Shown: one piece after another, positions 19,794 to 48,728 of the stretch | How the letters are laid out: each line of letters opens with the position of its first letter | Position numbering within the stretch: the first letter of the stretch is position 1 | DNA from: an uncultured Gammaproteobacteria bacterium | GTDB taxonomy: Bacteria > Patescibacteriota > Patescibacteriia > UBA1558 > S5-K13 | NCBI GenBank assembly: GCA_964640635.1 | Contig: CAZXFD010000001.1 | Span: forward strand, 177,302-241,301 | Length of the DNA: 64,000 nucleotides | Reading direction: 5' to 3' | Position numbers and translations under genes: made by a program | The notes under the pieces: model-generated | The model's input: the letters and a program-made list of their open reading frames with translations, nothing else | Told to the model about the DNA's origin: nothing | The model's database searches: none

Positions 19794-20276
19794 TTGAAAA
19801 TTGAAAATAGTCAAAATTCATCCCGCCAGGGCGGGATAAAAAATGTCTTTATCTGGGGCGCATACGATATTCTCCACGACGGTCATATTAAATTTATAGA
19901 ACATGCTAAGAAATTGGGTGATGTTTATGTTATTCTTGTACCAGATAAAGTAGTAAAAAAATACAAAAAATCTTATTTTAAAGCGAGTATAAGAAAAAAA
20001 CATTTACTAAAAACGGGGTTAGTAAAAAATGTTTTTATAGATGCACTTCCAAATATGAAATGTTTTGATAAAATAGCTCCTGATATATTTGTATTCGGTT
20101 ATGATCAGAACAAAGAATGGAATAACATTTTGAAGAAATATATTTTAGAAAGATTTTCAGATTGTAGGTTTAAAACATTAAAACAATATAGCGAAACACA
20201 TTCAAGTCATCTAAAAAGCAAGATATTATGTTATTGTAGAAGTGGAAAAAAGTTCGTTGATTGTCACGGAAAATAA
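19794..20276 (+). CDS. TagD-like cytidylyltransferase (HxGH nucleotidyltransferase) with a C-terminal SEC-C-like Cys/His motif; start codon ambiguous
   Basis: GAYDILHDGHIKFIEHAKKLGDVYVILV and IFVFGYDQNKEW closely parallel glycerol-3-phosphate cytidylyltransferase. The tail is CYCRSGKKFVDCHG. The only in-frame starts upstream of the KNVFIWG core are TTG 19794 or ATT 19800. Confidence 0.7.
   Translation: MKIENSQNSSRQGGIKNVFIWGAYDILHDGHIKFIEHAKKLGDVYVILVPDKVVKKYKKSYFKASIRKKHLLKTGLVKNVFIDALPNMKCFDKIAPDIFVFGYDQNKEWNNILKKYILERFSDCRFKTLKQYSETHSSHLKSKILCYCRSGKKFVDCHGK
19820..19837. repeat. 18-bp perfect palindrome ATCCCGCCAGGGCGGGAT (copy 1), inside the 5' coding region of the cytidylyltransferase gene
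   Basis: Seen directly. Encodes ...SRQGGI.... GC-rich in an AT-rich context. Confidence 0.8.
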
Positions 20277-20282
20277 TAATTA

Positions 20283-20300
20283 ATCCCGTCATGGCGGGAT
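20283..20300. repeat. 18-bp palindrome ATCCCGTCATGGCGGGAT (copy 2), intergenic, ending 11 nt before the MazG-like ATG
   Basis: Seen directly. Differs from copy 1 by a C-to-T change in the stem and a 1-nt change in the loop (CATGG for CAGGG). Confidence 0.8.
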
Positions 20301-20311
20301 AAGCTAAAAAT

Positions 20312-20671: not shown

Positions 20672-21111
20672 TTTCAAGACAGCGACCATGTGCTATTATT
20701 GTTCAAAATGACAAAATATTGCTAATGAAAAGAATTAGAGATAATGAAACTTATTTTACATTTCCAGGTGGTCACGTAGAAGAAAATGAGGACTTGCAAG
20801 CGACTTTAAAAAGAGAAATTAAAGAAGAGTTAAATTTTGATATTAGTAATTTCAAAGAAGTTTTTCGAATTATTCAATTTATCCCGCCAAGGCGGGATGA
20901 ATCAAGAGAAAATATAGAAATTGAAAGTATATTTTATTTAGTATTTGATTTTAAGGGAGAATTACAACTTGGTGGCCCAGAGATTGAAAGAATGAAAACT
21001 GGAAAAAATAATTATTATCCAACGTGGTATAATAAAGTTGAATTTAGTGAACTTGATCCAATTTATCCAGTTGGTATAAAAGAGTTTGTTTTAGATAATC
21101 TACTTAGTTAA
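20668..21111 (+). CDS. NUDIX hydrolase (second copy) carrying an in-frame 6-codon palindromic insert
   Basis: Nudix box PGGHVEENEDLQATLKREIKEELN. Codons IPPRRD are encoded exactly by palindrome copy 3. Confidence 0.7.
   Translation: MISRQRPCAIIVQNDKILLMKRIRDNETYFTFPGGHVEENEDLQATLKREIKEELNFDISNFKEVFRIIQFIPPRRDESRENIEIESIFYLVFDFKGELQLGGPEIERMKTGKNNYYPTWYNKVEFSELDPIYPVGIKEFVLDNLLS
20881..20898. repeat. 18-bp perfect palindrome ATCCCGCCAAGGCGGGAT (copy 3), in-frame inside the Nudix CDS
   Basis: Seen directly. Starts on a codon boundary of the 20668 frame. Confidence 0.8.
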
Positions 21112-39346: not shown

Positions 39347-40306
39347 ATGAAAAAGAAAATTTTGTTCGTCGTTGCGTTTTTGGTTTTTGCAGTTGTCATA
39401 TCAGGATGCTCTGTAAATCTCAAAAAAGCAAAAACTTTGAACCCAGAACAAGCTAAGACAAGAATTACTGAATTTATAAACAAGAACTTAATGAGTAATG
39501 GAGAGACTGTAGAAGTAAAAGATTTTGTATTGGAAAATGGTTTATACAAAATGTCAGTTGCCCTACCAAATAATCAAACAATAGATGCTTATATGACAAA
39601 AGATGGTAGCAAGTTTTTTCCACAAGTAATGGATTTGGCAAAAATTGAATCAGAAGCAGCTGGTGGAAGTACTGCTCAAGCACCTGTTGCAGAAGCTCCA
39701 AAAAGTGATAAACCAGTTGTAGAGGTTTTTGTTATGAGTCATTGTCCTTATGGAACTCAAATTGAAAAGGGTGTTATACCAGTTGCTGAAACACTAAAGA
39801 ATAAAATTGATTTTAGTATCAAATTTTGTGACTATGCAATGCACGGCGAAAAAGAATTGCAAGAACAATTGAAACAATATTGTATTTCAAAAGAACAGCC
39901 AGGAAAATATTTTGCATATCTTAAATGTTTCTTAAAGGCTGGGGACTCAGCTACATGTAGCAAAACAGCGGGTCTCGCATCAGTTGATTCATGTATTGCA
40001 AAATCAGATAAAGAGTTTTCTATCACAAAGAATTTCAATGATAAATCAACTTGGAAAGGTGATTATCCACCATTTTCCATTTTCGCAGCAGATAATACAA
40101 AATATGGAGTTCAAGGTTCCCCAACCCTTGTTATAAATGGTGCTCAAGTTGAGTCAGGTAGAGATTCGAAGAGTTTACTAGCAACTATCTGTACCGCTTT
40201 CAATAATGCTCCAGAAGAATGTTCTACAGAGTTATCAGGTGCTGCTCCATCAGCAGGATTTGGAGAAGGAACAACAAGTGGATCTACAGATGCTAGTTGT
40301 GAATAA
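39347..40306 (+). CDS. Lipoprotein with a thioredoxin/DsbA-like fold and a degenerate CPYG active site
   Basis: Lipobox VISGCS and VEVFVMSHCPYGTQ. Weak assignment. Confidence 0.4.
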   Translation: MKKKILFVVAFLVFAVVISGCSVNLKKAKTLNPEQAKTRITEFINKNLMSNGETVEVKDFVLENGLYKMSVALPNNQTIDAYMTKDGSKFFPQVMDLAKIESEAAGGSTAQAPVAEAPKSDKPVVEVFVMSHCPYGTQIEKGVIPVAETLKNKIDFSIKFCDYAMHGEKELQEQLKQYCISKEQPGKYFAYLKCFLKAGDSATCSKTAGLASVDSCIAKSDKEFSITKNFNDKSTWKGDYPPFSIFAADNTKYGVQGSPTLVINGAQVESGRDSKSLLATICTAFNNAPEECSTELSGAAPSAGFGEGTTSGSTDASCE

Positions 40307-40423
40307 TATTTATTGATTTTTTATAAAAAGCCGTTCTTTATTGGGCGGTTTTTTCTTTTACTTTATATGTGCTAAAATTTAAATAGGATTAGTATGTTCT
40401 AACCCTACTAACCAACTAATTTA

Positions 40424-40439
40424 CCCCGCCATGGCGGGG
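40424..40439. repeat. Perfect GC palindrome CCCCGCC-at-GGCGGGG, ending 12 nt before the desulforedoxin ATG
   Basis: Seen directly. The hairpin loop contains an ATG. Confidence 0.7.
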
Positions 40440-40451
40440 CAAGCTAACCAT

Positions 40452-40586
40452 ATGAACGTACAAAAAGAAGGAGAAAAGTATTATTGTGAAATTTGTGGAA
40501 ATGAAGTAACTGTAACAAAAGCTGGTGGAGGAGAGCTTATTTGTTGCGGAAAGCCCATGGAATTATTGAAGGAAGTGACTGAATAG
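40452..40586 (+). CDS. Desulforedoxin-like small metal-binding protein (44 aa), absent from the ORF track
   Basis: [39 protein letters not shown] has the CxxC...CC spacing and flanks of desulforedoxin and the Dfx N-domain. Confidence 0.65.
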
Positions 40587-40605
40587 AATTTAGTTGTTAG
40601 TGTTT

Positions 40606-40634
40606 TCCGCCAGAGGCGGATCAGCCTTCGGCTG
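40606..40634. repeat. Two adjacent GC hairpins (TCCGCC-aga-GGCGGA and CAGCC-ttcg-GCTG) downstream of the desulforedoxin gene
   Basis: Seen directly. Confidence 0.55.
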
Positions 40635-40647
40635 AAGAATTTAGAAA

Positions 40648-40680
40648 AAGAGTTGTTTTAAACGGCAACTCTTTTTTTCT
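40648..40680 (+). terminator. Intrinsic terminator
   Basis: AAGAGTTG-ttttaaacgg-CAACTCTT followed by TTTTTTTC. Confidence 0.7.
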
Positions 40681-40795
40681 TAATTTTTCTCGCGAAGCGG
40701 GATCCTGCAATAATTATAAAATATATGGAGACGTGGCCAGTTTCCTAATTTTCTAACCCTACTAACTTTCTAACCTCACTAACCCTCTAACCTCC

Positions 40796-40824
40796 TTGAC
40801 ACTATTTATTATTTTGCTATACTA
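40796..40824 (+). promoter_or_regulatory. Sigma-70-like promoter of the hrcA heat-shock operon (TTGACA, 16-17 nt spacer, TATACT)
   Basis: ttgacactatttattattttgcTATACT lies directly upstream of CIRCE. Confidence 0.55.
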
Positions 40825-40827
40825 AAT

Positions 40828-40854
40828 TTAGCACTCGTCTCTTATGAGTGCTAA
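40828..40854 (+). promoter_or_regulatory. CIRCE operator TTAGCACTC-N9-GAGTGCTAA overlapping the hrcA start codon
   Basis: Perfect match to the CIRCE consensus. The hrcA ATG lies inside the element. Confidence 0.9.
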
Positions 40855-41557
40855 GATACAAAAAAGTATGGAATTAAAAGACAAAGAATTACTTTTCAAA
40901 ATAATAGAAGAATATATTAGCTCTGCAAATCCTATTGGCTCTGCTTTTTTGGTTAAGAAAAAGAAAATGGATTGTTGCCCTGCAACAGTAAGAAATTCCA
41001 TGATGGACTTGGAAAAATTAGGATATTTGTATCAGCCTCATACATCAGCAGGAAGAATCCCAACCGAAAATGCTTATAAGCTTTATACACAAGAGCTAAA
41101 CAAAGACGAGAAGTTAAATTCAAAAATAGAAAAAAAGATAGAAAGCTTTTTAAACGAATTAAAAATAAAAGATAGAGTTACAAAATCAAAGGTTCTTGCA
41201 AAGATTATTGCAGAGGTAGCAAAGAATTCAGTTTTATTAGCTTTTTCAAAACACAATTATTATATTACTGGTTTTTCAAATATTTTGTCTCAAGTTGAGT
41301 TTGAAGATCCAGAAAAGTTAAGAGATTTAAGTCTTGTTTTTGATGAGCTTGAAAATATAGTTGAAAGAATGTTTAAGGGCGTTTCTGATAATGACGTTTT
41401 AATTGGCTCTGAGAATGAATTTTCTAAACATTTGTCTGTAATTGCGTCTCGAGCAAATTTAGTTCAAAATGAGGGCTTTTTGGCGATTCTAGGGCCTATG
41501 AGAATGAACTACAAGCAAAATTTAGGATTAATCAACTACTTTAAAAAAGCTTTATAA
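40844..41557 (+). CDS. hrcA: Heat-inducible transcription repressor HrcA (short form)
   Basis: N-terminal wHTH KELLFKIIEEYISSANPIGSAFL. Context is CIRCE plus grpE downstream. Confidence 0.75.
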   Translation: MSAKIQKSMELKDKELLFKIIEEYISSANPIGSAFLVKKKKMDCCPATVRNSMMDLEKLGYLYQPHTSAGRIPTENAYKLYTQELNKDEKLNSKIEKKIESFLNELKIKDRVTKSKVLAKIIAEVAKNSVLLAFSKHNYYITGFSNILSQVEFEDPEKLRDLSLVFDELENIVERMFKGVSDNDVLIGSENEFSKHLSVIASRANLVQNEGFLAILGPMRMNYKQNLGLINYFKKAL

Positions 41558-41584
41558 TTTTATAAACAATTTAATATAAAAATA

Positions 41585-42133
41585 ATGACAGAAGAAAAAG
41601 ATATACAAGAAGAAGATACTCAAGTAGAAGAGGCCGAAGAAGAAACATTAGACAAAGAATTCGGAGATGAAGTATTTTGCGCTAACTGTAAAAAATTAAA
41701 GGCACAATCAGATGAATATTTAAATAATTGGAAAAGATCCCAAGCTGATTATGAAAATTTGAAAAAACAAACAGAAAAAAGAATAAAAGATATTATAGAA
41801 TTTGGTAATGCTGAAATGATATTGGAATTTTTACCACTTTACAATTATTATTCTGTTGCGCTAAATCACATTCCTGAAAGTAGTAAAAAAGAATCTTGGT
41901 TTGAGGGTCTAAGTCATATTGACACTCTTTGGCAAGGATTTTTTGAAAAGTTTGGTATAAAGAAAATAAGCACAGTAGGAAATCAATTTGATCACAATAT
42001 TCATGACGCTGTTGATTTTGAAAGTGATAAGGATAAAAAAGATCATGAAGTGCTCAAGGAATTGCAAGCGGGTTATGAGCTTTCGGGGAAAGTAATCCAA
42101 CCAGCAAAAGTAATTGTTAATAAACTAGATTAA
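41585..42133 (+). CDS. grpE: Nucleotide exchange factor GrpE
   Basis: Acidic N-terminus, coiled coil and the GrpE C-terminal beta domain ...GYELSGKVIQPAKVIV. Confidence 0.85.
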   Translation: MTEEKDIQEEDTQVEEAEEETLDKEFGDEVFCANCKKLKAQSDEYLNNWKRSQADYENLKKQTEKRIKDIIEFGNAEMILEFLPLYNYYSVALNHIPESSKKESWFEGLSHIDTLWQGFFEKFGIKKISTVGNQFDHNIHDAVDFESDKDKKDHEVLKELQAGYELSGKVIQPAKVIVNKLD

Positions 42134-42141
42134 TATAATTA

Positions 42142-42190
42142 ACCCCGCCTTTGGCCCGCTTCGCAGTAGCGACAGCGAGGCAAGTCGGAA
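42142..42190 (+). promoter_or_regulatory. GC-rich structured leader upstream of hsp20, including its AAAGGAGA Shine-Dalgarno; candidate RNA thermometer or processing element
   Basis: ccccgcctttggcccgcttcgcagtagcgacagcgaggcaagtcgg includes the hairpin CGC-agta-GCG and a GCGAAGCGGG-family motif. Confidence 0.3.
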
Positions 42191-42206
42191 AAAGGAGATC
42201 AAAATT

Positions 42207-42617
42207 ATGAAATTAGTAAGATGGAATCCTTTTCTTGATGAGGGTGGTGACTGGGGAATGCTAAGTCCTTTTACAGGGGCAAATGCATTTGTGCCATCAC
42301 TTGATATTTATCAAGACAAAGACAACGTTATTGCAAAGGCAGCTTTGCCTGGAATTGACCCAGAAAATGTCAATATTTCTATTGAAAATGATATTTTGAC
42401 AATTGAAGGAACAATGAAAAAAGAATCAGAAGTTGATGAAAAAGATTATTACAGAAAAGAAATAAGTTCAGGATCATTTCACAGAAGTATGATTTTGCCA
42501 ACTAGCGTAAATGGTGATAAGGCAAAAGCAGAGTTTGCAAATGGAATACTAGAGATAACAATGCCAAAGAAAGAAGAAGTAAAACCAAAAACAGTTAAAA
42601 TTGAAATTAAGAAATAA
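42207..42617 (+). CDS. Hsp20/alpha-crystallin small heat shock protein
   Basis: Alpha-crystallin domain ...DNVIAKAALPGIDPENVNISIENDILTIEG...AEFANGILEITMPK. Confidence 0.9.
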   Translation: MKLVRWNPFLDEGGDWGMLSPFTGANAFVPSLDIYQDKDNVIAKAALPGIDPENVNISIENDILTIEGTMKKESEVDEKDYYRKEISSGSFHRSMILPTSVNGDKAKAEFANGILEITMPKKEEVKPKTVKIEIKK

Positions 42618-42624
42618 ACAAACC

Positions 42625-42656
42625 CGACCTCGTAGGTCCAAGGACCTTCGAGGTCG
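42625..42656 (+). repeat. Long near-perfect hairpin CGACCTCG-t-AGGTCC-aa-GGACCT-t-CGAGGTCG between hsp20 and the next gene
   Basis: Seen directly. About 14 bp of GC-rich stem with no U-tract. Confidence 0.6.
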
Positions 42657-42671
42657 TAAAGCTAAAACAAA

Positions 42672-42998
42672 ATGGACGGATCACTGATTTTCCCAAAAAA
42701 AATATTACAAAAATGCCCTGTCTGCGACGCAGATTATGATGCAAAAAAAGTGCAACTTTTAGATGCACAGGATTTGGATATATTATCTTATTTTAAGTGT
42801 GATAATTGCAAAAGTGGAATAGCTCTAAAGATTATGATTATGCCTCATGGCGTAGTAGGTCAGGCTATTGTCACGGATTTAGAACCGAGTGAAATATTAA
42901 ATTTCAAAAGCAAAAAGATACTAGTCAATAGCACAGATGTGTTGTATGTATATGATTTTTTTAAGAAAAAGAAGGATTTATTACGTGAAATTAAATAA
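42672..42998 (+). CDS. Hypothetical zinc-ribbon protein (CPVC...CDNC)
   Basis: Two CxxC pairs. No family recognised. Embedded in the heat-shock operon. Confidence 0.5.
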   Translation: MDGSLIFPKKILQKCPVCDADYDAKKVQLLDAQDLDILSYFKCDNCKSGIALKIMIMPHGVVGQAIVTDLEPSEILNFKSKKILVNSTDVLYVYDFFKKKKDLLREIK

Positions 42999-43008
42999 TT
43001 TAAAAATA

Positions 43009-43494
43009 ATGAAGAAAGATATTTATATAAAATTGATTGAATTTGGAAGAAAGAATTATTCGGGATTCAATTATGAAGATTTAAATAAATCTCAAGAATT
43101 AGATGATGATATTAAAGAAGTGGGGAATATTATGTTAAAAAATGCTTACAGTAATACATTTAAATCTATACATGGCGGTTATTCTAATTTAGAAACTATG
43201 TTTCTTGTTAAATCAAATAATGGCGGTTATATTGAAAATTATATTGATCCAAAAATTAAATATGTACTAAATTTAGATGCTGATTTTAAATATATAGATT
43301 ATCAAGAATTGAAACATGCAAGAAGAATGTCTAGAGAAGCAAAGAAAACTTCTGAGAAGTCTATAAAAATAGCTATTATTGCAATGATGTTATCTGTAAT
43401 TATTCCTATAATAGTTGCGCTTTTGTTTACACAAACCATAAAGGTAAACAGAAATCAGTTTAATGAAATAAAAACATTGATAAACAATAAATAA
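43009..43494 (+). CDS. Hypothetical protein with a C-terminal TM anchor
   Basis: Start set at MKKDIY. The longer track ORF overlaps the previous gene. Confidence 0.45.
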   Translation: MKKDIYIKLIEFGRKNYSGFNYEDLNKSQELDDDIKEVGNIMLKNAYSNTFKSIHGGYSNLETMFLVKSNNGGYIENYIDPKIKYVLNLDADFKYIDYQELKHARRMSREAKKTSEKSIKIAIIAMMLSVIIPIIVALLFTQTIKVNRNQFNEIKTLINNK

Positions 43495-43512
43495 TATAAT
43501 TTATAAAAGTAT

Positions 43513-44355
43513 ATGCCAAACAAAGAATTTTTAGAAGAATATCCTCTTTATAAAAGTTTTGAAACAGGAATCGTTCACGATAAAAGATACACTAGTGATA
43601 TTATAGATTTTACTAAAATTCCAAAACCAGCAATTCATATGTATTGCTCAACTTGTGGTTCTGGACAGACGTTTAATATGATAAATGATTATCATGAAAA
43701 TGAAAGTAATCAGGGCGTTATTGTTTTTGATAAGGTTGTTAGAGCGCTATATCTATGTTCGGCATGTGAGGATAACAAAAGATTTTTTATTATAAGATTT
43801 TTGTCAGAAAAGGTGAATGATTATCAATATAAAGTTATTGTTATGAAGGTTGGACAATATCCAGCGTGGGAAATTAAGATGAATAAAAATTTAAAGAAAA
43901 CTTTAGGAGAGCACTCTGGTTATTATAATAAGGGATTAATATGTGAATCTCAGAATTATGGCATAGGTGCTTATGCTTATTTTAGAAGAATAACAGAAGA
44001 TATAATTGATGAATTATTAGAATCAATACATGGTTTAATTGATGGAGAAGAGAAACAAGAAGAATATAAAAAAGCATTAGAGAATATACGCCAAGAAAAA
44101 AGAACATCTGAAAAAATTGATGTTGTAAAAGACTTATTACCAAATAGTTTAATAATAGATGGTATTAATCCATTAAAAGTTTTGCACGACGCTTTAAGTG
44201 TTGGACTGCATGGTAAAACAGACGAGGATTGTATGGAGCTTTCAGTAACTATTAGAGATAGTTTAGTTTATTTAATCAATCAAATTCTATCAAATAAACA
44301 AGGAAAAGAGCAATATAAAAAAAGCTTAGCTAAGCTTTCTAAAAAAATTAAATAA
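43513..44355 (+). CDS. Hypothetical protein with an N-terminal Cys4 zinc-finger (CSTCGSG...CSACEDN) and an alpha-helical C-terminal domain
   Basis: No confident family. The C-terminus is loosely reminiscent of DUF4145-type helical domains. Confidence 0.45.
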   Translation: MPNKEFLEEYPLYKSFETGIVHDKRYTSDIIDFTKIPKPAIHMYCSTCGSGQTFNMINDYHENESNQGVIVFDKVVRALYLCSACEDNKRFFIIRFLSEKVNDYQYKVIVMKVGQYPAWEIKMNKNLKKTLGEHSGYYNKGLICESQNYGIGAYAYFRRITEDIIDELLESIHGLIDGEEKQEEYKKALENIRQEKRTSEKIDVVKDLLPNSLIIDGINPLKVLHDALSVGLHGKTDEDCMELSVTIRDSLVYLINQILSNKQGKEQYKKSLAKLSKKIK

Positions 44356-44391
44356 TTTAAATATAAATTAAAATAATAATTCAGAAAGGAA

Positions 44392-44409
44392 CCCACGCCT
44401 GTGGCGGGG
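44392..44409. repeat. GC hairpin CCCACGCC-tgt-GGCGGGG, ending 11 nt before the dnaK ATG
   Basis: Seen directly. One mismatch in the stem. Confidence 0.6.
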
Positions 44410-44420
44410 TAAATAAAATT

Positions 44421-46352
44421 ATGAGCAAAATATTAGGAATTGACTTAGGAACAACAAACAGTGCAATGAGTATTATTGAGGGTGGAAAGCCAGTTATCTT
44501 GGAAAACAAAGAAGGCGCAAGAACTACTCCATCAATAATCGCAGTTGCAAAATCAGGTGAACGTCTTGTAGGACTTCTTGCAAAACGTCAAGCAGTTATT
44601 AACCCTGACAACACTTTATTTTCTATCAAACGTCTTATTGGTAGAAGATTTGATGACAAAGAAGTTCAAAGCGATATTAAGACATTGCCTTATAAAATCA
44701 AACAAGCTGGTGAGGGTGTAAAAATTACTCTTGGAGACAAGGATTATTCACCTCAGGAAATCTCAGCAATGATTTTACAAAAATTAAAAGCAGATGCAGA
44801 AGAAAAACTAGGTGAAAAGATAGAAGAAGCTGTTATTACGGTTCCAGCATACTTTGATGACGCACAACGTCAAGCAACAAAAGATGCAGGAGAAATCGCA
44901 GGACTAAAGGTCCGAAGAATTATCAATGAACCTACTGCAGCAGCTTTTGCATATGGTTTTGACAAGAACAAAGACCAAAAAATCGTTGTATACGATTTAG
45001 GCGGTGGAACATTTGATATTTCAGTACTTGATATTGGTTATGACGCAGAAACAAAGCAATCTACCGTAGAAGTAAAGTCCACTAATGGTGATACTCACTT
45101 AGGTGGAGATGACTTTGACCAAAAGATTATTCACTTTATTATTGATGAATTCAAAAAAGACCAAGGAATTGATCTTGCAAATGACAAAACCGCTTTACAA
45201 CGCTTGAAGGAGTCTGCAGAAAAGGCAAAGATAGAGCTTTCTACTTCAATGGAAACTGAAATTAATCAACCATTTATTACAACAGACGCTAGTGGTCCAA
45301 AGCACTTGGTCATGAAAATGACAAGAGCAAAATTAGAAGAACTTGTTGGAGAATTAGTTGATAAAACAATGATTCCTTGCCAAAAGGCATTAGACGATGC
45401 AGGACTTAAAAAAGAAGATATAAATGAAGTAGTGCTTGTCGGTGGTATGACTCGTATGCCATATGTCCAAAAGAAGGTAGAAGAATTCTTTGGTAAAAAG
45501 CCAAATATTACAGTAAATCCAGATGAAGTTGTAGCAATGGGTGCAGCAATTCAAGCAGGACAATTTGAAGGGTCTATGGGTAGTAAAGAAGTATTGCTTC
45601 TTGATATCACTCCACTTACTCTTGGAATTGAAACTCTTGGGGGTGTTATGACTCCACTTATTGAAAAAAATACAACTATCCCTACAGCAAAGAGCCAAAT
45701 TTTCTCAACCGCAGCAGATAGTCAGACTTCTGTAGAAATTCATATTCTTCAAGGTGAAAGACAATTAGCGCAGGATAATAAGACACTTGGCAGATTTATC
45801 TTATCAGGTATTCCACCAGCACCTCGTGGTATTCCTCAAGTTGAAGTTAGCTTTGATATTGATGCAAACGGAATTTTGAATGTAAAAGCAGTAGACAAGG
45901 CAACAGGAACTGAGCAGAAAATTACCATCACAGCATCAAGTGGTCTTTCAAAAGAAGAAATAGAAAAAATGAAGCAAGAAGCAGAAGCTCATGCTGAAGA
46001 AGATAAGAAAAAGAAAGAAGAAATAGAAGTAAACAATAATGCAGAAAGTATCATTTATAATACTGAAAAAATGCTAAAAGACGCTAGCGGAAAAGTTGGT
46101 GCTGACGTAATTACAAAAGTAGAAGACAAACTTAAGGAATTAAAAGATGCAAAAACTGCAAACAATGTTGAAGATATGAAAAAGAAAATGGAAGAAATGA
46201 ATGAAGTTGTTCAAGAAATTGGAAAAGCAATGTATGCTCAGCAACAACAGGCTCAACCAAATGGAGATGCGCAAGCAAACCCAGAAACTTCAGAAGAGCC
46301 AAAAAAAGACGAGCCAGTTGAAGCAGAATTTGAAGATGTTAAAAAGGAATAA
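44421..46352 (+). CDS. dnaK: Chaperone DnaK (Hsp70)
   Basis: [17 protein letters not shown] and the Glu/Lys/Ala-rich C-terminal lid. Confidence 0.95.
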
Positions 46353-46444
46353 GTTAAAAGTCAAAAAGTCATAAAGTTAAAAAGCAATAACCAAAACTTT
46401 ATAACTTTATGACTTAGTACTTTATAAACTTTATAACTAAATCT

Positions 46445-46741
46445 ATGACAGAACAAAATCAACAAGTGGAATTAAAAATCTCAGACAATATTCCTGGTGG
46501 TGAATATGCAAATGCAATGCAAATTTCTCATAATCAAGATGAATTTCATATGATATTTATGAATTTATTGCCACCTACTGGAAAAGTAGTATCAAAGGTT
46601 ATTACAAGTCCAGGACATATGAAAAGAATCATCGGTGCTATGCAAGAAAATCTCAAAAAATATGAAGATCAATTTGGGGAGATAAAAGAATCTTCAAGCC
46701 CAGAAAAAACAATCGGTTTTGCAGATAGAAAAGAATCTTAA
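46445..46741 (+). CDS. DUF3467 domain protein
   Basis: GEYANAMQISHNQDEFHMIFMNLLPP...VVSKVITSPGHMKRIIGAMQENLKKYEDQFGEI. Confidence 0.6.
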   Translation: MTEQNQQVELKISDNIPGGEYANAMQISHNQDEFHMIFMNLLPPTGKVVSKVITSPGHMKRIIGAMQENLKKYEDQFGEIKESSSPEKTIGFADRKES

Positions 46742-46786
46742 ATCAAAATCGCTAAATACTAAAAACTAAACTCTAAACACTAATAA

Positions 46787-47875
46787 ATGTCCAAAGACTA
46801 CTATAAAACCCTGGGTCTTGATAAAAATGCCACAGAGGATCAAATAAAAAAAGCCTTTAGAAAACTTGCCCACGAACATCATCCAGATAAAGCAAATGGA
46901 AAAGATGAAAAATTCAAAGAAATAAACGAAGCTTATCAAGTTTTAGGCAACAAAGACAAAAGAGCTAAGTATGACCAATTTGGTAGTGCTGATTTTGGTT
47001 CTGGCTCAGGATTTGGTGGAGGAGGCTATAGTGGAAACTGGCAAGATTTTTCTGGAGGGTTTAGTGGTGGAAATTCAGATTTTGGATTCGGTGATTTAGG
47101 TGATATTTTTGGGGATATTTTTGGTGCAGGCGGACGAACTACAAAAAAAGGGTCAAGTAGAGGACGAGATGTTGAAATATCTATTGAAATATCATTTGAA
47201 GAAGCGGTTTTTGGGGTAGAAAAAATAGTAAATCTTAAGAAAAATGTTCAATGTGAAAAATGTAATGGTGCCGGTGGTCATGGAAGCAAAACTTGCTCAA
47301 GGTGTAATGGTACAGGACGTATTCATATTCAACAAAATACTATTTTTGGATCTTTTGCTTCAGCGGCACAATGCCCAGAGTGTGATGGTTCAGGGCAGTT
47401 ATTGAAAGAAGTCTGTGGTCATTGTAGTGGCAATGGTTACTATAGTGGTAGTGAAGAAATCAAAATAAAAATTCCAGCAGGAATTGACAATGGTCAATCA
47501 CTCAGACTTCAAGGAAAAGGTGAGCCAGGTAAAAAATCAAAATCAGTGGGGGATTTGTATGTAAGAATAAAAGCACAACCTAGTCGTGAGTTTCAAAGGG
47601 ATGGGTATGATATAAAAAGTTCTGTAAAAGTAAAATATTCCCAACTTATTTTGGGAGATAAAATAAATGTAAAAACACTAGATGGAGATGTGAAGCTCAA
47701 AATTCCTAGCTCTACATCGAGTGGAAAAGTTTTTATATTAAAAGATAAAGGCGTACCAAAATTAAATAGTCGTGGTCGTGGAGATCACTTTGTAAAGGTT
47801 ATATTAGATATGCCAAGTTCTTTAAGTCATGAACAAAAAAAGTTAATAGATGAATTAGCAAAGAGAGGGTTGTAG
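46787..47875 (+). CDS. dnaJ: Chaperone DnaJ
   Basis: J-domain HPD, Gly/Phe-rich linker and four CxxCxGxG zinc-finger repeats. Confidence 0.9.
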   Translation: MSKDYYKTLGLDKNATEDQIKKAFRKLAHEHHPDKANGKDEKFKEINEAYQVLGNKDKRAKYDQFGSADFGSGSGFGGGGYSGNWQDFSGGFSGGNSDFGFGDLGDIFGDIFGAGGRTTKKGSSRGRDVEISIEISFEEAVFGVEKIVNLKKNVQCEKCNGAGGHGSKTCSRCNGTGRIHIQQNTIFGSFASAAQCPECDGSGQLLKEVCGHCSGNGYYSGSEEIKIKIPAGIDNGQSLRLQGKGEPGKKSKSVGDLYVRIKAQPSREFQRDGYDIKSSVKVKYSQLILGDKINVKTLDGDVKLKIPSSTSSGKVFILKDKGVPKLNSRGRGDHFVKVILDMPSSLSHEQKKLIDELAKRGL

Positions 47876-47908
47876 TTATTAGCAGGTCAGTAGTTTAGTT
47901 GCGTATCT

Positions 47909-47926
47909 ACGTAGCTAAGAAGCTAC
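47909..47926 (+). repeat. Hairpin CGTAGCT-aaga-AGCTACG downstream of dnaJ
   Basis: Seen directly. The GTAGCTAAG motif recurs 25 nt later. No clear U-tract. Confidence 0.4.
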
Positions 47927-47995
47927 GAAACTCAATCTATGTAGCTAAGTAACTAATTTTTTGTTATAATATATTTGTTAAATAAAATAGACTTT

Positions 47996-48325
47996 ATGAA
48001 CTTAGATAAATGGAAAGACGTGAAAGCCAATATACTCAGTAATTTTGAAATTACAAATCAATACGAAGAAAAAGATGAGGATTCTCACGGAATAAAAGAA
48101 ACAATAGAATTCAACGGACCTCTTGGAAAAACAAGATTGGTATTTTCTAGCAGAGATTTAATATTAGATAAACATACAAATTATTCAAATAGAATTGGAT
48201 CTGGAGTGTCAGTAGAATATCATTATTCTGATACAGAAAAAACGAATTCTCTTAAAGCATTTAAATTCGTTGATGGAGATTGGCAAGAAATTGAAATGCA
48301 ATTCCAACCATTTATTCAAGATTAG
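47996..48325 (+). CDS. Hypothetical protein
   Basis: ORF preceded by an extended -10 TGTTATAAT. No homolog recognised. Confidence 0.4.
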   Translation: MNLDKWKDVKANILSNFEITNQYEEKDEDSHGIKETIEFNGPLGKTRLVFSSRDLILDKHTNYSNRIGSGVSVEYHYSDTEKTNSLKAFKFVDGDWQEIEMQFQPFIQD

Positions 48326-48374
48326 CCCCATCAATTATATTATTATTCAATTAATCAATTAGGCTATTAATTTT

Positions 48375-48728
48375 ATGAGCTTTATAAGCAGAATTTTTAA
48401 AAAAGAATACTCCCATTTTTTCATTTATAAGTGGAGTATTTTTGCAAGCTTTGTCGAAGTTTTACTCATTGTCCTAGCAACATTTTCGATGACAAATTTA
48501 TATACAATTTTGTCTTCATCTGGGTCTATGAGTAATTCTATATACACAATGGTTTTTTCTTTCTATTTAGTATTGTTTGTTATTCTTACCTGTTTCATCG
48601 TTTTTGGAATGCCATTATATTTAATTATCAAAAAAAGAGCATTTTCTACAGCATTTTTAATGTTGCTTATGACTATGGCTTTTATTTTTGTGTTTTTTAC
48701 AGCACTGCTTTTAGTATATTTGATGTAA
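48375..48728 (+). CDS. Hypothetical membrane protein (3-4 TM helices)
   Basis: Hydrophobic ORF. Confidence 0.4.
   Translation: MSFISRIFKKEYSHFFIYKWSIFASFVEVLLIVLATFSMTNLYTILSSSGSMSNSIYTMVFSFYLVLFVILTCFIVFGMPLYLIIKKRAFSTAFLMLLMTMAFIFVFFTALLLVYLM

Follow-up and report, generated by a model that had tools for sequence, protein, structure and literature searches.

We describe a heat-shock operon in a 64-kb stretch of contig CAZXFD010000001.1 (the whole of it referred to here as the window; 30% G+C), from an ultra-small bacterium, a Parcubacteria-like member of Patescibacteria. The operon lies at positions 40796-47875 and reads hrcA-grpE-hsp20-orf108-dnaK-DUF3467-dnaJ, with two further genes, orf161 and orf280, standing between orf108 and dnaK. 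Our reading, to which we give a probability of roughly 0.78, is that this is an ordinary CIRCE (controlling inverted repeat of chaperone expression) operon in which orf108 is ancestral and orf161 and orf280 are a strain-specific insertion of defence-type cargo. The kind of operon is already known; what is new is the set of conserved extras (hsp20, orf108, and DUF3467) and the single strain-specific, defence-type insertion. Of the three unannotated genes between hsp20 and dnaK, which a first-pass annotation of this DNA had treated as a trio, one proves to be a conserved core gene and two are recent cargo, a distinction that keeps a gene of defence type from being wrongly annotated as a chaperone.

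Nine forward-strand open reading frames (ORFs) separated by short gaps fill the interval, and the ORF list together with Pfam confirms the gene order given in the first-pass annotation as well as its description of the three middle genes: a 108-aa protein with a CxxC...CxxC pattern, a 161-aa protein with a C-terminal hydrophobic segment, and a 280-aa protein with four cysteines. The parts of the operon are as follows.

40796-40823, + strand: sigma-70-type promoter, TTGACA at 40796-40801, 16-nt spacer, TGc-TATACT at 40818-40823, extended -10
40828-40854, + strand: CIRCE operator, TTAGCACTC-N9-GAGTGCTAA, 0 mismatches, covering the hrcA ATG at 40844
40844-41557, + strand: hrcA, short form, 237 aa; Pfam HrcA 3.5e-18, C-terminal domain, above the gathering score
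41585-42133, + strand: grpE; Pfam GrpE 6.6e-37
42207-42617, + strand: hsp20, small heat-shock protein; Pfam HSP20 4.1e-21
42672-42998, + strand: orf108, small zinc-ribbon protein, 108 aa, CxxC...CxxC; ancestral operon member
43009-43494, + strand: orf161, part of the insertion, 161 aa (169 aa from a GTG at 42985); hydrophobic segment near the C-terminus
43513-44355, + strand: orf280, part of the insertion, 280 aa; N-terminal beta/zinc-ribbon and C-terminal HEPN-like helical bundle; PHROG 25239
44421-46352, + strand: dnaK; Pfam HSP70 2e-252
46445-46741, + strand: DUF3467 gene, conserved operon member between dnaK and dnaJ; Pfam DUF3467 1.3e-16
46787-47875, + strand: dnaJ; Pfam DnaJ, DnaJ_CXXCXGXG, and DnaJ_C
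47875-47970, + strand: structured region past dnaJ ending in a T run, dG (folding free energy) -24.9, the probable operon end

The assignment to class I HrcA/CIRCE heat-shock operons is supported: CIRCE stands at the promoter, an hrcA gene is present, and grpE, dnaK, and dnaJ come in order. The promoter scores 11/12, the top match in 8.2 kb, with a TG two bases 5' of TATACT; it had been described as TTGACA-N17-TATACT, and the promoter holds up while its spacer proves to be 16 nt rather than 17. CIRCE begins 4 nt past the -10 hexamer, lies over the hrcA start as had been claimed, and is the sole match in the window even when up to three mismatches are allowed (expected 0.02). A TTGACA...TATACT block also precedes CIRCE in two related loci (L010 and L036), a perfect CIRCE stands 5' of hrcA in five (L009, L030, L033, L034, and L133), and the DUF3467 gene has the same operon position in five (L010, L034, L036, L129, and L131). 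The HrcA protein scores 164.5 bits against TIGR00331, under the equivalog cut-off of 197, and is therefore a short variant; its length in relatives is 230-249 aa. The HrcA match falls into two stretches, and the part normally found in the middle thus seems shortened.

The transcription unit upstream of the operon ends in a good intrinsic terminator (40643-40678). There is no second CIRCE anywhere in the window at up to three mismatches and no forward-strand promoter match of at least 10/12 between hrcA and dnaK, in agreement with the first-pass annotation, and a terminator scan found no forward-strand terminator-like site in the same interval. Since no separate CIRCE or strong promoter precedes dnaK, the simplest reading is that the chaperone genes and the three genes among them are co-transcribed. 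One sigma-70 promoter would read the operon, and HrcA bound to the single CIRCE would repress it, as in the established HrcA/CIRCE model.

The case for an insertion comes from the edges of the orf161-orf280 segment and from its absence in relatives. The segment is bounded by an exact direct repeat.

42988-43004, + strand: left copy of the 17-bp direct repeat AAATTAAATAATTTAAA, covering the last codons and stop of orf108; left indel edge
44345-44361, + strand: right copy, covering the last codons and stop of orf280; right indel edge

This 17-mer is the longest direct repeat in 42600-44450, and its copies, 1357 bp apart, are the only two in the window at up to one mismatch (expected 0.14; none of 100 shuffles reached two). 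Relatives were retrieved by GrpE from species-representative genomes, with GrpE identities of 91% (L008), 71% (L009), and 64% (L010), and then about 35% in Staskawiczbacteria. The source organism was assembled twice independently (L001 and L002, from runs SRR10083292 and SRR10083293), both times with an arrangement identical to that of the window, which is thus not an assembly artefact. The space between orf108 and dnaK is empty in L009, L010, L036, L129, L131, and L133; in L034/35 it holds a 183-aa NUDIX gene and an array of ATTCGTAT-like repeats, and in L033 such an array starts right after the orf108 stop and continues to the contig end. In L036 all 17 nt of the repeat are present as a single copy at the orf108 stop, running into the dnaK leader, and L033 retains its initial 16 nt (AAATTAAATAATTTAA) and then diverges into the repeat array. 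On the other side, TAAATAATTTAAATATAAATTAA, just 3' of the right copy, matches the dnaK-proximal spacer of L034. An insertion-free junction would read from the orf108 stop directly into TATAAATTAAAATAATAATTCAGAAAGG. The G+C content is 23-27% in the insert (23-24% in orf161) against 33-38% in the flanking chaperone genes. The orf108/dnaK junction thus appears to be a variable slot in this clade. The first-pass annotation had offered co-chaperones or an insertion as explanations of the trio; insertion fits orf161 and orf280, given the repeat and the empty slot in relatives, and does not fit orf108, which occupies its place without the other two genes in L009, L010, L034, L036, L129, L131, and L133, so that the trio is no single unit. 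The refuting condition named in the first-pass annotation, hsp20 directly followed by dnaK in related genomes, gives a mixed outcome: the order in relatives is hsp20-orf108-dnaK.

We propose that a 1.36-kb segment carrying orf161 and orf280 entered the slot in this strain, most likely by illegitimate or microhomology-mediated recombination. A transposon, insertion sequence (IS), or integron cassette does not account for it: no recombinase, integrase, or transposase domain was found in orf161 or orf280 with Pfam, PADLOC, or PHROG, the 17-bp repeat is longer than usual target duplications, and a search for terminal inverted repeats gave none that was convincing, just low-complexity inverted repeats of 79%. 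The gaps between orf108 and orf161, orf161 and orf280, and orf280 and dnaK are 10, 18, and 65 nt, and these short gaps, together with the lack of a terminator and of a strong promoter of its own, make read-through transcription of the insert probable. The inserted orf280 would then probably be transcribed from the CIRCE promoter and probably be heat-inducible, a placement that looks accidental.

The nature of the cargo is indicated by orf280. Its homologues number more than 600, all close to it in length and about 45-56% identical. Those few with named sources come from Parcubacteria, Taylorbacteria, Bacteroidetes, and Phycisphaerales, a distribution that is patchy and points to horizontal mobility. 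The protein matches the phage family PHROG 25239, whose function is not annotated, with E 1.6e-49 (residues 24-278 on positions 41-289 of 294). Across an alignment of 45 sequences, C45, C48, C82, and C85, the motif KVGQxPxW, and E145, Q147, R158, E162, N219, S229, and H233 are invariant. An AlphaFold2 model (mean predicted local distance difference test, pLDDT, 86.7) has an N-terminal six-stranded domain containing the zinc ribbon and a C-terminal helical bundle that, on this model, may be called HEPN-like. The Rx4-6H motif is absent: H233 is invariant, but positions 227-229 are A/L/S, and R158/R159 have no histidine 4-6 residues downstream in the alignment. No HEPN, DUF4145, Abi, or other Pfam model matched any of the 45 members at E <= 1, and orf280 has no NCBIfam match, no match in the PDB by sequence profile, and nothing significant in a Foldseek search against the PDB.

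Genomic context is more telling. In a type I restriction-modification (R-M) operon one homologue (P0003) separates hsdS from hsdR, and another (P0013) adjoins an MmeI-type enzyme and a SIR2-like gene. In a census of 93 further loci, with the upstream neighbour scored in 67 and the downstream neighbour in 76, the commonest upstream neighbour is HsdS (7/67) and the commonest downstream neighbours are ResIII/HsdR (5), GmrSD (3), MmeI/Eco57I (2), and AbiGi (1); type I R-M genes occur within two genes at 17 of the 93. A temperate Rhizobium phage carries a homologue as a lone, opposite-strand, moron-like gene beside the major capsid gene, and a Leptospira plasmid carries one that has a Shedu nuclease gene and an IS3 element in its vicinity. 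Embedding in type I R-M systems is an accepted predictor of defence function (PMC11411939; bioRxiv 10.1101/2024.01.29.577857). Because its homologues are so embedded, orf280 is best explained, on this comparative evidence, as single-gene accessory cargo of an anti-phage or abortive-infection type and not as a chaperone. In the window, unlike in its homologues, it is flanked by chaperone genes, and none of its neighbours in the operon is an R-M gene.

Its companion orf161 is an orphan, whose sole match among 5.8 billion sequences is itself, with nothing above noise in Pfam, PADLOC, or NCBIfam. We considered whether it is the conserved partner of orf280 in a two-gene system and rejected this: no homologue is found within two genes on either side at the 93 loci, and a hydrophobic segment occurs in one of 18 close upstream neighbours of orf280 homologues.

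The third gene, orf108, has a different history. Its homologue lies between hsp20 and dnaK in L009 (78% identity) and L010 (50%), and the same placement is seen in L034/35 and L036/37, in the latter with dnaK beginning 24 nt past the orf108 stop. L033 has a copy 98% identical, 3' of hsp20, on a contig that ends before dnaK. A profile search gathered 12 clusters of close relatives, whose contigs all show hrcA-grpE-hsp20-orf108, and an exhaustive hidden Markov model (HMM) search extended the family to 632 representative clusters at E <= 1e-3, with full-length matches of about 100-130 aa. Genomic neighbourhoods were seen for eight of these 632 representatives. In three (P0134, P0136, and P0160, at L129, L131, and L133) the gene is again bordered by hsp20 and dnaK, in operons whose outer surroundings differ considerably. 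Since the hsp20-orf108-dnaK arrangement is kept despite these different flanks, orf108 appears to be an old, vertically inherited member of this operon type. More distant members, among them three of the eight (P0145, P0200, and P0282), lie directly upstream of the gene for ribosomal protein L25/Ctc (rplY).

L130 108-461, L137 21-347, L138 4001-4300, and L139 1479-1778: orf108-family genes directly 5' of L25/Ctc

At L130 the gene is preceded by a TTGACT-N17-TATAAT promoter of its own and has a CCCC...GGGG hairpin in its leader. Neither Pfam nor NCBIfam has a family that covers orf108, and PADLOC gives nothing above noise; an AlphaFold2 model (pLDDT 76.7) shows a zinc ribbon, a four-stranded sheet, and C-terminal helices. 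A common origin of the orf108 zinc ribbon and the N-terminal ribbon of orf280 was rejected, with an hhalign probability of 1.4%. Two conserved contexts are seen, hsp20-X-dnaK and X-rplY, and orf108 is probably stress-linked. The most novel element of the region is this unannotated family with its dual linkage to Hsp20/DnaK and to L25/Ctc; it is widespread, belongs to Patescibacteria whose proteostasis machinery is almost unstudied, and is a candidate for experiment.

One could suppose that all three genes are dedicated stress co-chaperones that evolved with the operon, as the first-pass annotation had suggested. Chaperone genes under CIRCE control do enclose them, no terminator or promoter is visible, orf108 is tightly linked to hsp20 and dnaK in many genomes, and Cys4 zinc sites are known in DnaJ and Hsp33. 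Yet orf161 and orf280 are missing from the slot in all relatives with readable sequence, orf161 is without a homologue, and none of the 93 orf280 loci has hrcA, grpE, hsp20, orf108, dnaK, DUF3467, or dnaJ nearby, the neighbours being R-M and defence genes (HsdS upstream; HsdR, GmrSD, or MmeI downstream). For orf161 and orf280 a co-chaperone role is therefore largely refuted, and to the idea as it concerns the whole trio we attach very little credence.

Several points weigh against our reading of an old operon with a recent insertion. The 17-bp repeat could equally have mediated deletion in the relatives, and L008, the closest species representative, has a run of 100 Ns (1764-1863) exactly at the slot, which makes it uninformative on insertion in the nearest genome; the run, at the orf108 3' end and dnaK leader, is what might be expected if repeats or strain heterogeneity had broken the assembly. 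PADLOC gives orf280 no match above noise (the sole match is PDC-S35, E 0.009), and its defence role is a prediction; the stress link of orf108, although probable, is putative. There are 41 weak promoter-like matches against 35 expected in DNA this AT-rich, and an internal promoter may precede orf280 or dnaK. Co-transcription, heat induction, and any RNA role of the GC-rich hairpins described below are deduced from sequence. Taking up the first of these points, orf161 and orf280 could be ancestral at the site and have been lost from relatives by recombination between the repeats. Direct repeats do promote deletions, and a single or near-complete copy at the orf108 stop (17 nt in L036, the first 16 in L033) is what such an event would leave. 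Deletion in all relatives is nevertheless less favoured, since the pair would have to have been lost many times over: it is missing from at least six lineages that differ in their outer flanks, one of the relatives having NUDIX cargo instead. In other taxa, R-M operons house the closest homologues of orf280 (about 55% identity), no other copy among the 93 loci is linked to dnaK, and the insert is AT-richer than its flanks. We consider ancestral presence followed by loss highly unlikely, and retain insertion into the slot.

Placed under CIRCE, orf280 raises a possibility that goes beyond accident. A burst of phage structural proteins could titrate the chaperones and so derepress the defence gene, and orf280 would couple abortive infection to the HrcA signal, with orf108 as a new co-chaperone or ribosome-associated proteostasis factor. 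The two proposals taken jointly are improbable, and we offer them as speculation; if they are true, orf108, to whose role its only two conserved contexts would point, may found an unrecognised family of small zinc-ribbon stress proteins in Patescibacteria with minimal chaperone sets. PHROG 25239 is in any case an R-M-embedded family suitable for anti-phage testing, and the slot, with orf161/orf280 here and a NUDIX gene or a repeat array in relatives, shows an essential operon under tight regulation accepting cargo in its interior, at one particular junction.

Such tolerance appears to be general in Patescibacteria. The grpE-dnaK interval of Staskawiczbacteria (L011-L026) ranges from about 40 nt to 4.4 kb, and its passengers include a trypsin-like peptidase, a ClpP/SDH-type protease, CYTH, and DUF6680, with a theme of proteolysis; an HMM search found no orf108 homologue in these intervals. 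In one distant relative, L133/L134 (6661-8357), past dnaK, a GIY-YIG gene, a 252-aa gene, and a HigB-like toxin gene replace DUF3467-dnaJ, an intrusion of mobile type. These passengers and the L133 genes are the grounds on which we regard the operon interior as permissive to extra genes.

L016 10438-12145, L011 10611-14598, and L013 9260-10374: examples of the Staskawiczbacteria interval

A second feature of the operon is its hairpins, three of them rich in G+C.

42145-42188, + strand: imperfect 17-bp GC-rich hairpin in the hsp20 leader, dG -21.7, ending just 5' of the AAGGAG Shine-Dalgarno sequence
42625-42656, + strand: 13-bp hairpin 3' of hsp20, a GACCTCG-type palindrome, dG -23.7, no U tract
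44391-44410, + strand: dnaK-leader hairpin CCCACGCC-TGT-GGCGGGG, dG -12.5 to -13.9, directly 3' of GAAAGGA and 11 nt 5' of the ATG
46366-46415, + strand: AT-rich hairpin 3' of dnaK, dG -21.2, built of 8-nt tandem repeats

The three GC-rich hairpins had been noticed in the first-pass annotation; folding bears them out, and related genomes have them in corresponding places. The window contains 7 perfect GC-rich hairpins where Markov shuffles give 0.27, an excess of about 25-fold. The hsp20-leader hairpin is shared, with substitutions, by L033 (dG -22.9). L010 too has the dnaK-leader element ahead of dnaK, and L008, L009, and L034 have it in the leader of hsp20; ahead of dnaK, L008 and L036 do without this element and show GAAAGGA/GAAAGGG 8-9 nt from the ATG. 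A strong hairpin (dG -19 to -43) stands 3' of hsp20 in every relative, even where the sequences are unrelated (L010 and L036), and the GACCTCG type occurs 3' of hsp20 in the window, L033, and L034 and 3' of dnaK in L034 and L010; 3' of dnaK, relatives have GC-rich hairpins. Since MAFFT/RNAalifold misaligned the palindromes and understated their conservation, the GACCTCG type was assessed in a trimmed alignment to which an explicit structure was supplied: pairing is kept in 95% of cells, with compensatory changes in 5 of 13 pairs, values that none of 500 shuffles and no slid register reach.

We infer that the hairpins are intercistronic elements of RNA stability or processing, a role that is plausible from this analysis. 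They may protect or define 3' or 5' ends, be processed, or partly terminate transcription, and would set differing levels of the hrcA-grpE-hsp20 and dnaK-dnaJ messages. Such a role would resemble that in B. subtilis, where processing of the dnaK-operon mRNA uncouples hrcA from grpE-dnaK, according to the accounts in PMC3446304 and PMC11313650, each of which refers to Homuth et al. 1999. The three hairpins do not fit canonical intrinsic terminators, as none has a U tract on the coding strand; the terminator scan places matches at 42638-42626 and 44408-44392 on the reverse strand and none of the three on the forward strand. Nor do they fit RNA thermometers of the ROSE or fourU kind, although such thermometers are known in the leaders of small heat-shock genes. 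The leader hairpins do lie 10-20 nt from the hsp20 and dnaK start codons, and the same hairpin shifts between the two leaders in relatives, as might be expected of thermometers or translational switches acting on top of HrcA. Against this, minimum free energy folds leave AAGGAG, GAAAGGA, and the AUG unpaired, stems of 7-17 bp that are rich in G+C (-12 to -22 kcal/mol) are unlikely to melt physiologically, and an Rfam scan of 40000-48500 at E <= 1 returned no ROSE or other thermometer. A thermometer or switch here is scarcely probable. The one Rfam match is a let-7 precursor on the AT-rich dnaK 3' hairpin (46352-46422, reverse strand; E 0.018, its 28.6 bits falling short of the gathering score, 53.5), which we take as a chance hit on a long hairpin.

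The dnaK-leader hairpin belongs to a family of mini-palindromes, (AT)CCCGCC-N3/4-GGCGGG(AT), with five copies in the window, that resembles small mobile palindromic elements.

20287-20304, 40424-40439, and 44392-44409: copies 11-12 nt 5' of the starts of a MazG-like gene, a desulfoferrodoxin-N-type gene, and dnaK
19820-19837 and 20881-20898: copies in frame inside genes, one in a cytidylyltransferase-like N-terminus and one as 'IPPRRDE' in a NUDIX gene

Because it also stands before non-heat-shock genes and inside coding regions, the element is not specific to heat shock, a further argument against thermometers. The hairpins might instead act at the level of DNA, as mobile mini-palindromes like repetitive extragenic palindromic (REP) elements or as protein-binding sites, with no specific role in operon expression. 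The two in-frame copies, the occurrence of GACCTCG-type palindromes at the 3' ends of both hsp20 and dnaK in relatives, and the presence of the leader hairpin in some dnaK leaders and its absence from those of L008 and L036 would all suit this explanation, which we regard as a minority possibility to be taken seriously. It does not readily explain why a hairpin stands 3' of hsp20 in every relative and why compensatory changes keep it paired; this positional conservation and these changes indicate selection on structure at that site.

The surroundings of the operon are themselves conserved in part. Upstream lie, syntenic and conserved, a lipoprotein gene with a thioredoxin/GILT-like C-terminal region (39347-40306) and a 44-aa desulfoferrodoxin FeS4-domain (rubredoxin-like) gene (40452-40586); a longer, 51-aa version of the latter, whose start falls within the leader hairpin, is probably a miscall. 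Downstream of dnaJ, at 47975-48325 (ATG probably 47996), is a conserved gene of about 109 aa, found also past dnaJ in L010 (55% identity), L036, and L131; it has an extended -10-like TGtTATAAT near 47958-47967 on its 5' side and no match in Pfam, PHROG, PADLOC, or NCBIfam. The intergenic spacers of this lineage consist of degenerate 7-9-nt tandem repeats whose unit varies by spacer.

40745-40792: unit TCTAACCC, just 5' of the -35
46351-46438: units AAAAGTCA and AACTTTAT, 3' of dnaK
46752-46783: unit CTAAACA, before dnaJ
L033 2716-2885 and L034 6960-7050: unit ATTCGTATT x7.9, in the orf108-dnaK slot of relatives

Such repeats end the L033 contig and probably break assemblies. The window itself holds no ATTCGTAT repeats, no L25 gene, and no orf108 paralogue.

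Comparison with known systems places these elements. REP elements and intercistronic stem-loops of the E. coli malEFG type stabilise upstream mRNA segments. The hairpins resemble them in being imperfect, G+C-rich palindromes at cistron boundaries, without a U tract, recurrent, and conserved in structure, but they are much shorter, have few copies, and lie in some cases inside coding regions. The operon as a whole corresponds to the B. subtilis hrcA-grpE-dnaK-dnaJ operon, with a sigma-70 promoter followed by a perfect CIRCE, hrcA first, and then grpE, dnaK, and dnaJ, and its structured intercistronic regions recall the post-transcriptional processing of that operon; it differs by the addition of hsp20, orf108, and the DUF3467 gene, by its short HrcA, and by the defence-type insertion.

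For orf280 the nearest parallels are R-M-embedded genes ('guilt by embedding': PrrC, TgvAB, and the HEC/PDC candidates; Payne et al. 2024), whose position is shared by orf280 homologues between hsdS and hsdR or beside type IIG/IV enzymes, whereas the copy in the window sits in a chaperone operon and has no significant PADLOC match. Among these candidates HEC-08 likewise combines a HEPN domain with zinc-ribbon-like domains, but in orf280 the domain order is reversed and Rx4-6H is lacking. Lack of this motif also separates orf280 from HEPN RNases (the AbiA C-terminal domain, RnlA/LsoA, Csm6, and HEPN-MNT), to which sequence profiles do not connect it. With phage morons and defence-island cargo, orf280 shares its single-gene form, patchy spread across phyla, an opposite-strand copy in a phage, and membership of a PHROG family; it departs from morons in that the copy in the window lies on the same strand as its host operon, with no promoter or terminator of its own seen.

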